Shown in pieces: positions 1 through 639 of a DNA stretch of 639 nucleotides. This stretch comes from Escherichia coli (GTDB lineage Bacteria > Pseudomonadota > Gammaproteobacteria > Enterobacterales > Enterobacteriaceae). A program made the translations under genes and the position numbers. Each line of letters begins with the position of its first letter. The stretch's first letter is position 1. A model generated the notes under the pieces. The model saw nothing but the letters and a program-made list of their open reading frames with translations, was not told the DNA's origin and did no database searches. The DNA lies in NCBI RefSeq assembly GCF_003334385.1, contig NZ_QOWN01000156.1; one strand, given 5' to 3'.

Positions 1-150
1 GATTATCAGCCAGGATTCGTCAAAGTCCGGGATATAACGGCGGTTCTCCGGCAGGAAAAACTCCCTCGCCAGTATCACACTGTGTTCCTTCAGTAACGCC
101 TGCAGACCATACTCCAGATAGCGATTCCTGGTAGCCAGAATCACCTTCAT
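1..150 (-). CDS. Hypothetical protein, N-terminal 50 codons only. 3'-partial; the gene continues beyond the window's left edge.
   Basis: ATG at 150..148 (minus), preceded by an AGGAAGG Shine-Dalgarno at 7-nt spacing. The frame is open for all 50 codons to position 1: MKVILATRNRYLEYGLQALLKEHSVILAREFFLPENRRYIPDFDESWLII... It is absent from the ORF track, presumably because it has no in-window stop. I do not recognise the family from this fragment. Confidence 0.45.
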   Translation of the reverse strand, partial: MKVILATRNRYLEYGLQALLKEHSVILAREFFLPENRRYIPDFDESWLII

Positions 151-157
151 CGCAGCA

Positions 158-164
158 CCTTCCT
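158..164 (-). promoter_or_regulatory. Shine-Dalgarno / ribosome-binding site for the downstream minus-strand gene
   Basis: Minus-strand AGGAAGG (plus 158..164), then a 7-nt spacer (UGCUGCG), then ATG at 150..148. Confidence 0.5.
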
Positions 165-187
165 GTTTTTTATGCCCCATGAAAAAC
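165..187. repeat. AT-rich near-perfect inverted repeat (10-nt arms, CCC centre)
   Basis: Plus strand 165..174 gttttttatg and 178..187 catgaaaaac are reverse complements except for one T/G position. It lies between the terminator stem and the downstream gene's Shine-Dalgarno, and its right arm is the terminator T-tract. Confidence 0.4.
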
Positions 188-214
188 GGCAGACCAGAGT
201 CCTGCGCCTGCCGT
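181..214 (-). terminator. Putative Rho-independent terminator of the adhesin gene
   Basis: Minus-strand RNA reads CGGCAGGC-(11-nt loop GCAGGACUCUG)-GUCUGCCG followed by UUUUUC. This is an 8-bp GC-rich stem with one G.U wobble (plus-strand arms 187..194 and 206..213) and a T-tract at 186..181, about 25 nt downstream of the TAA stop. On the plus strand the same stem would have an A-C mismatch and no trailing U-tract, so it is directional for the minus strand. Confidence 0.55.
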
Positions 215-238: not shown

Positions 239-639
239 TTAAAACTCGAAGTTCACACCAACATTCCAGGAGGCATCGCCATCACTGAATGCCACGCCTG
301 CTTTCGCTGCGGTCTGCTCGTTGAAGCGGTAACCCACACCCACTGCCAGTGCCTGCTGGTCGCTGTAACCACCAACCGCTGCCGTGGCGTTGAATTTACC
401 CACACTGTACGGCTGGAACAGACCTGTCAGGGCCGCAGACTGTGCTGCTGCTCGTTTCATTTCCTTATGGTTTTCATTAATCTGGCGCTGCTGGCTGTCC
501 AGACGTGCTGAATGTTGCTGCAGCGTACGGGTATTGGCTGCAATCGCCTTGCTGTTTTTCTCAATGGATTGCGTGTTACGGGTGACACGGCCATCAATGG
601 CACCAACTGCTGCATCAATACGGTCAGTACGACCAGACA
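239..639 (-). CDS. Trimeric autotransporter adhesin (YadA/Eib-like), C-terminal part: coiled-coil stalk plus beta-barrel membrane anchor. 5'-partial; the gene continues beyond the window's right edge.
   Basis: Minus-strand frame with first full codon at 637..635 is open from the window edge to TAA at 241..239. Translation: [132 protein letters not shown]. The last ~65 residues ([22 protein letters not shown]...WNVGVNFEF) have the Gly/Ala-rich alternating pattern and terminal aromatic (Phe) typical of the YadA-type anchor. The upstream ~60 residues show a strict heptad with hydrophobic a (I/V/L/M) and polar d (N/N/N/H/Q/N) positions. The ATG at 460..458 that starts the 73-aa track ORF is in this same frame and is an internal Met. 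Confidence 0.85.

Follow-up and report, generated by a model that had tools for sequence, protein, structure and literature searches.

YadA of Yersinia is a plasmid-borne, collagen-binding protein, whereas the Eib proteins of E. coli are prophage-borne and bind immunoglobulins. Eib proteins show non-immune binding of IgG and IgA Fc and have a part in serum resistance, aggregation, chain-like adherence and the formation of biofilms (PMC12511318 and other cited papers), and prophages disseminate their genes among E. coli, both commensal and Shiga-toxin-producing. A C-terminal barrel, a left-handed coiled coil and a saddle are common to Eib proteins (PMC12511318). In EibG the substitution D391A abolished IgG Fc binding and left chain formation unaffected; the position beside this key Asp is Tyr in some Eib proteins and Ala in EibG (preprint 10.64898/2025.12.25.695649).

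The stretch analysed here, referred to throughout as the window, comprises 639 nucleotides of E. coli DNA. Its minus strand almost certainly carries, at 239-637, the 3' end of a prophage-borne eib gene, which encodes a trimeric autotransporter of type Vc. The fragment is closest to EibA, EibC and EibD; it is real, correctly interpreted and already known. Conceptually it brings nothing new, and the leads that it offers are modest: a predicted LuxR-type protein, ORF-156, and a single Ig-binding 3' block common to different passengers. The following features were located in the window.

239-637, minus strand: 3' end of the eib gene, 132 codons plus the TAA stop (241-239), from the ORF and homology; the ORF exits the right edge
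446-625, minus strand: membrane-proximal left-handed coiled-coil stalk, residues 5-64, from EibD 2XZR and the heptad phase
611-616, minus strand: codons for Asp8-Ala9 (motif RIDAAVG), from alignment to EibD D387-Y388 and EibG D391-A392
242-418, minus strand: YadA-like membrane anchor, residues 74-132, the protein ending in Phe, from Pfam PF03895 and 2LME
182-214, minus strand: stem-loop resembling a terminator (186-214), with a T run on the coding strand after it (186-182), between eib and orf-156, from folding and a terminator scan
158-164, minus strand: AGGAAGG resembling a Shine-Dalgarno sequence, 7 nt before the orf-156 ATG, read from the sequence
1-150, minus strand: first 50 codons of ORF-156, with the ATG at 150-148, exiting the left edge, from translation and the annotated orf-156A/C/D/E

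On the minus strand, no stop interrupts the frame between the right edge of the window (637) and the TAA at 241-239, and the product has 132 amino acids; bases 638-639 form a partial codon, which leaves 239-637 as the in-frame span. The first-pass annotation, made from the letters of the window, had placed the gene at 239-639. The gene stands, but the coordinates do not, as a literal translation of 239-639 is out of frame and riddled with stop codons. That annotation had also described a 132-residue minus-strand product with a Gly/Ala-rich C-terminal segment, alternating in hydrophobicity and ending in Phe, and this description is borne out by the translation and by composition: Gly and Ala together make up 32% of residues 68-132 against 19% of residues 1-67, and hydrophobic positions alternate in 68-132. 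Residues 1-70 follow a single dominant heptad phase, in which 16 of the 20 a and d positions are occupied by I, V, L, M, A or N, with Asn recurring. Codon differences between the eib part and P-EibC/D (seven synonymous, one non-synonymous) support coding in the minus-strand frame. The program-made ORF list also contains a plus-strand ORF of 110 amino acids (179-511). It was set aside as an artefact of the antisense strand, and the likelihood that it is a real gene is vanishingly small: it lies antisense to a frame with strong homology (E=1e-17 to 1e-27), substitutions follow the codon phase of the minus strand, its Cys/His-rich product has low plausibility, and it is annotated in no record examined. 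Searches of the window with Rfam (E<=1) and a tRNA scan found nothing, nor was a sigma-70-like promoter found there.

The product divides into an anchor and a stalk. The Pfam model YadA_anchor (PF03895) matched residues 74-132 from its first to its last position (model 1-60 of 60, E=4.7e-17), and in a search of PDB sequences the YadA anchor structure 2LME aligned to residues 55-131 (E=1.5e-19). Residues 5-64 matched 2XZR, the crystal structure of the EibD coiled coil (E=1.4e-27), with 56 of 60 aligned residues identical, the identity being unbroken across residues 11-62. Residues 1-39 matched, apart from residue 9, the C-terminal end of 2XQH, the structure of the EibD passenger (E=3.7e-15). 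Such matches are well outside what chance would give. The features of type Vc autotransporters found in the product are a full-length C-terminal YadA-like anchor, a terminal Phe and a coiled coil directly N-terminal of the anchor. The Pfam check thus agrees with the YadA-type anchor first proposed, and the EibD match with the proposal that a coiled coil precedes it. The passenger and head had been placed outside the window; this holds for the head, but only in part for the passenger, as the membrane-proximal stalk with its IgG Fc-binding position lies inside.

All 639 nt are 100% identical to a segment of the E. coli SCU-104 chromosome, and identity of at least 99% was found in 20 complete E. 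coli genomes. A close copy is present in 42 of 5426 complete E. coli genomes, in every case on the chromosome and often several times per genome. Identity of the window DNA to phage and prophage loci is 99.7% for PhiR5_2 (an induced phage), 97.8% for both P-EibC and P-EibD, and 95.2% for P-EibA. Plasmid records gave only distant relatives (<=80% identity), and a plasmid origin is therefore unlikely. All 132 residues of the product are identical in six Eib-like proteins of 386-426 amino acids, from SCU-104, PhiR5_2 and four more E. coli strains. The resemblance to the Eib/YadA group that had been proposed at first reading can now be put in figures: 131 of 132 residues are shared with EibC and EibD and 130 of 132 with EibA, and identity to EibE is 77% over the region.

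Comparison with the named systems places the fragment within this group. Like EibA (P-EibA, E. coli ECOR-9, AF151091), it has RIDAAVG with Ala after the key Asp, and in both a terminator and orf-156 follow; a gene for an Eaa-type S6 peptidase follows at the SCU-104 locus also. It differs from EibA by two substitutions in the anchor (T85S and Q94E), by the loop and T run of the terminator, and in DNA identity, given above. With EibC and EibD (structures 2XQH and 2XZR for EibD) it shares the stalk, anchor, terminator and orf-156, but they have Tyr388 (EibD numbering) where the window has Ala. EibC and EibD carry a YadA-like LPBR head, whereas the 100%-matching SCU-104 locus has a passenger of the EibA type, and EibA is without the LPBR head (PMC12511318). 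EibG and EibE have the same architecture, the conserved Asp and a highly similar anchor, but only about 75-77% identity in the region and a coiled coil that is shorter by one heptad (7 residues). YadA itself shares the fold and mechanism of the anchor, as the 2LME alignment illustrates, yet its anchor is only about 43% identical to that of the window. YadA proper (NCBIfam NF033478) was considered and rejected, the full SCU-104 protein scoring 70.3 bits against a cutoff of 750; NCBIfam searches with that protein gave only sub-threshold matches to YadA, Vomp and EmaA. The window protein works like YadA, yet is not YadA.

The window encodes the implicated Fc-binding position in the Ala form seen in EibA and EibG, because Asp8-Ala9 align to EibG D391-A392 and to EibD D387-Y388; the corresponding pair in EibE is D370-Y371. 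The mapping of the IgG site rests on the 2025 preprint (10.64898/2025.12.25.695649). The EibG numbering could be traced in the 508-amino-acid protein of strain JNEC-KY171, which carries RID391-A392 and matches the published EibG both in length and in its D391-A392 numbering. The 'EibE D378/Y388' numbering in the same preprint is internally inconsistent and does not fit the sequences.

The sole amino acid difference from EibC and EibD is this change from Tyr388 to Ala, which involves every base of the codon (611-613). The sequences suggest that it arose by allele exchange rather than by point mutation, the Ala form being common to EibA and EibG. From near-identity to proven binders, the window protein would be expected to show non-immune binding of IgG and IgA Fc, and we infer that the gene is expressed, and its product trimerises and binds Ig, in the source strain. 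The presence of Ala beside the key Asp, in place of the Tyr of EibC, EibD and EibE, is weak counter-evidence, because Ala is likewise found in EibA and EibG, both known to bind IgG. A relative that binds no Ig and shares only its anchor with Eib, such as a Cla chain-like adhesin or the GER2-type phage 'adhesin', is a very improbable source of the window. Trimeric autotransporter adhesins that have similar anchors and do not bind IgG do exist (preprint 10.64898/2025.12.25.695649), and the 354-amino-acid adhesin of GER2 is 72% identical over the window region. However, the segment SGRTDRID is missing in the GER2-type protein and intact in the window, Cla proteins do not conserve the residues that bind IgG, according to the same preprint, and the stalk and anchor of the window are 98.5-99.2% identical to those of the proven IgG binders EibA, EibC and EibD.

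With the fragment read as the end of an Ig-binding Eib protein, a mechanism can be proposed, drawn mostly from established YadA and EibD biology and from PMC12511318. The full protein would be exported by Sec, as knowledge of YadA and EibD suggests. The last 59 or so residues of each of three chains (242-418) would supply four beta-strands per chain to a 12-stranded barrel in the outer membrane, and the helix preceding the anchor would occupy the pore of this barrel. The left-handed coiled coil (446-625) would project from the surface and carry the site for non-immune binding of IgG Fc, including Asp8 (equivalent to EibG D391). Beyond the eib gene, a hairpin resembling an intrinsic terminator precedes orf-156.

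The window alone shows the last third of the gene; the 5' two-thirds of the source gene, with the signal peptide and head, lie outside. At the 100%-identical SCU-104 locus the eib gene is an intact ORF of 386 amino acids, 89% identical to EibA. Its protein begins MSKKLAKTVLSAAMAGVLFGVSFDIMA/AEE, a signal-peptide-like N-terminus by inspection, and has an EibA-type passenger; Pfam detected the anchor in this protein, and no YadA head or stalk domain. The first-pass annotation had reckoned with an insignificant anchor match, or with an upstream frame that is interrupted or lacks a signal peptide; the anchor match is significant, and the ORF of SCU-104, 100% identical over the window, is intact with a signal-peptide-like start. 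It is very unlikely that the window is a decaying 3' remnant of eib, a pseudogene within a degraded prophage. The best match is only a partial copy in 13 of the 42 genomes with a close match, and fragmented tail-fibre genes adjoin eib in the SCU-104 prophage, as might be seen in decay. Set against this are the 132 codons, all of them open, the identity of the encoded protein to that of intact genes, and the fact that changes relative to P-EibC/D are nearly all synonymous, in addition to the intact ORF at the identical locus.

The genomic setting of the intact gene was examined at nine close loci (at least 95% DNA identity), and all proved to be prophage or phage DNA with tail genes flanking eib, as had been supposed when a prophage accessory region was first suggested. 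In these nine loci, and in the phages GER2 and PhiR12_3, eib sits after genes for a tail fibre and for tail-fibre assembly (DUF4376; ORF-191 in the ECOR-9 records). Downstream of eib lie orf-156, usually a short ORF at the position of orf-60 and, in some loci, an Eaa/S6 autotransporter protease. The fragment indicates that its source is an accessory region of an E. coli prophage, with a potential virulence or colonisation factor.

When the SCU-104 locus was compared with the other loci by BLASTN, a conserved block was found that extends from about -475 to +730/+740 in window coordinates. This block of about 1.2 kb corresponds to about 11525-12740 of the SCU-104 locus (L001) and comprises orf-60, orf-156, the intergenic hairpin and the saddle-to-anchor part of eib. 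Across prophages with unrelated eib passengers its identity is 93-99% (L001 against L002-L012); in GER2 and PhiR12_3 the identity is 90-93% and the block stops short, at about +510 to +560. Beyond the block follow about 640 nt of unrelated passenger, after which the sequences are again similar around the signal peptide and in the region upstream. As judged by these alignments, the arrangement looks like a cassette-style exchange of passengers between prophages. Because the window lies wholly within a block that is joined to several unrelated passengers, its sequence does not reveal the type of head.

The identical Ig-binding stalk and anchor also occur in Eib-like proteins of 417-426 amino acids, whose passengers are unlike those of EibA, EibC, EibD and EibE. 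These are encoded at five loci.

L005, 12239-13498: Eib-like protein of the 417-426-amino-acid type
L006, 6239-7492: the same type
L007, 6239-7501: the same type
L008, 6239-7516: the same type
L009, 6239-7519: the same type

No name for this passenger type was found in the literature examined, and in a speculative reading, which we consider rather unlikely, these proteins would be undescribed Ig-binding adhesins. The GER2 'adhesin' (L011, 5239-6303), by comparison, is without the segment that bears the Asp for IgG Fc binding and has a coiled coil reduced by one heptad; it may be equivalent to the Cla-type adhesins, which do not bind Ig.

Between eib and orf-156, the sequence from 151 to 245 folds with a minimum free energy of -30.7 kcal/mol (z=-2.56), and the terminator scan detected the hairpin. 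A stem_loop is annotated in the ECOR-9 GenBank records AF151674, AF151675 and AF151091. Compared with the window, the EibA and EibE loci retain the stem but have a different loop.

The full ORF-156 gene lies at 11680-12150 of the SCU-104 locus, and in all 14 loci it is directly downstream of an eib-type adhesin gene. Its product has been 'hypothetical' in every record examined since the GenBank records of 2000, and the homologues named by sequence searches are all E. coli hypothetical proteins. It falls in PHROG 6585 (E=2.9e-99), a group whose function is unknown, and had no match in Pfam or NCBIfam. An AlphaFold2 model built from a 23-sequence alignment (pLDDT 86, pTM 0.81) was compared with known structures by Foldseek, and its neighbours in the PDB were regulators of the FixJ/NarL/LuxR type, namely FixJ, DesR, RcsB, EvgA and StyR (E=7e-4 to 1e-2). 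Against AFDB the model matched E. coli proteins annotated as LuxR (TM 0.83-0.93, 30-41% identity) and, more weakly, EcpR. A profile of ORF-156 matched solely LuxR/GerE HTH proteins among PDB sequences, and these weakly (E=0.09-0.25). The receiver-like domain of the model is shortened, with four strands, and has a near-invariant D52 after beta3; the canonical acidic pocket of receivers is absent from ORF-156, which has ATRN after beta1 and no Asp pair. The model suggests that this domain is atypical and probably independent of phosphorylation. ORF-156 is thus a probable atypical regulator of the LuxR/FixJ type, as far as the predicted fold can indicate. A more speculative reading, which we consider rather unlikely, is that ORF-156 might move together with the eib 3' block as an atypical transcription factor of the LuxR/FixJ type, with eib or other surface factors under its control. 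If so, control by ORF-156 could account for the unexplained induction of Eib in static culture.

Two further observations concern SCU-104 (L001, 6529-11406). Its eib prophage abuts a truncated ompW near the trp-yciEFG region, and downstream of orf-156 it encodes a 1341-amino-acid autotransporter protease of the S6 family (Eaa-like), as is also the case in P-EibA and P-EibC.
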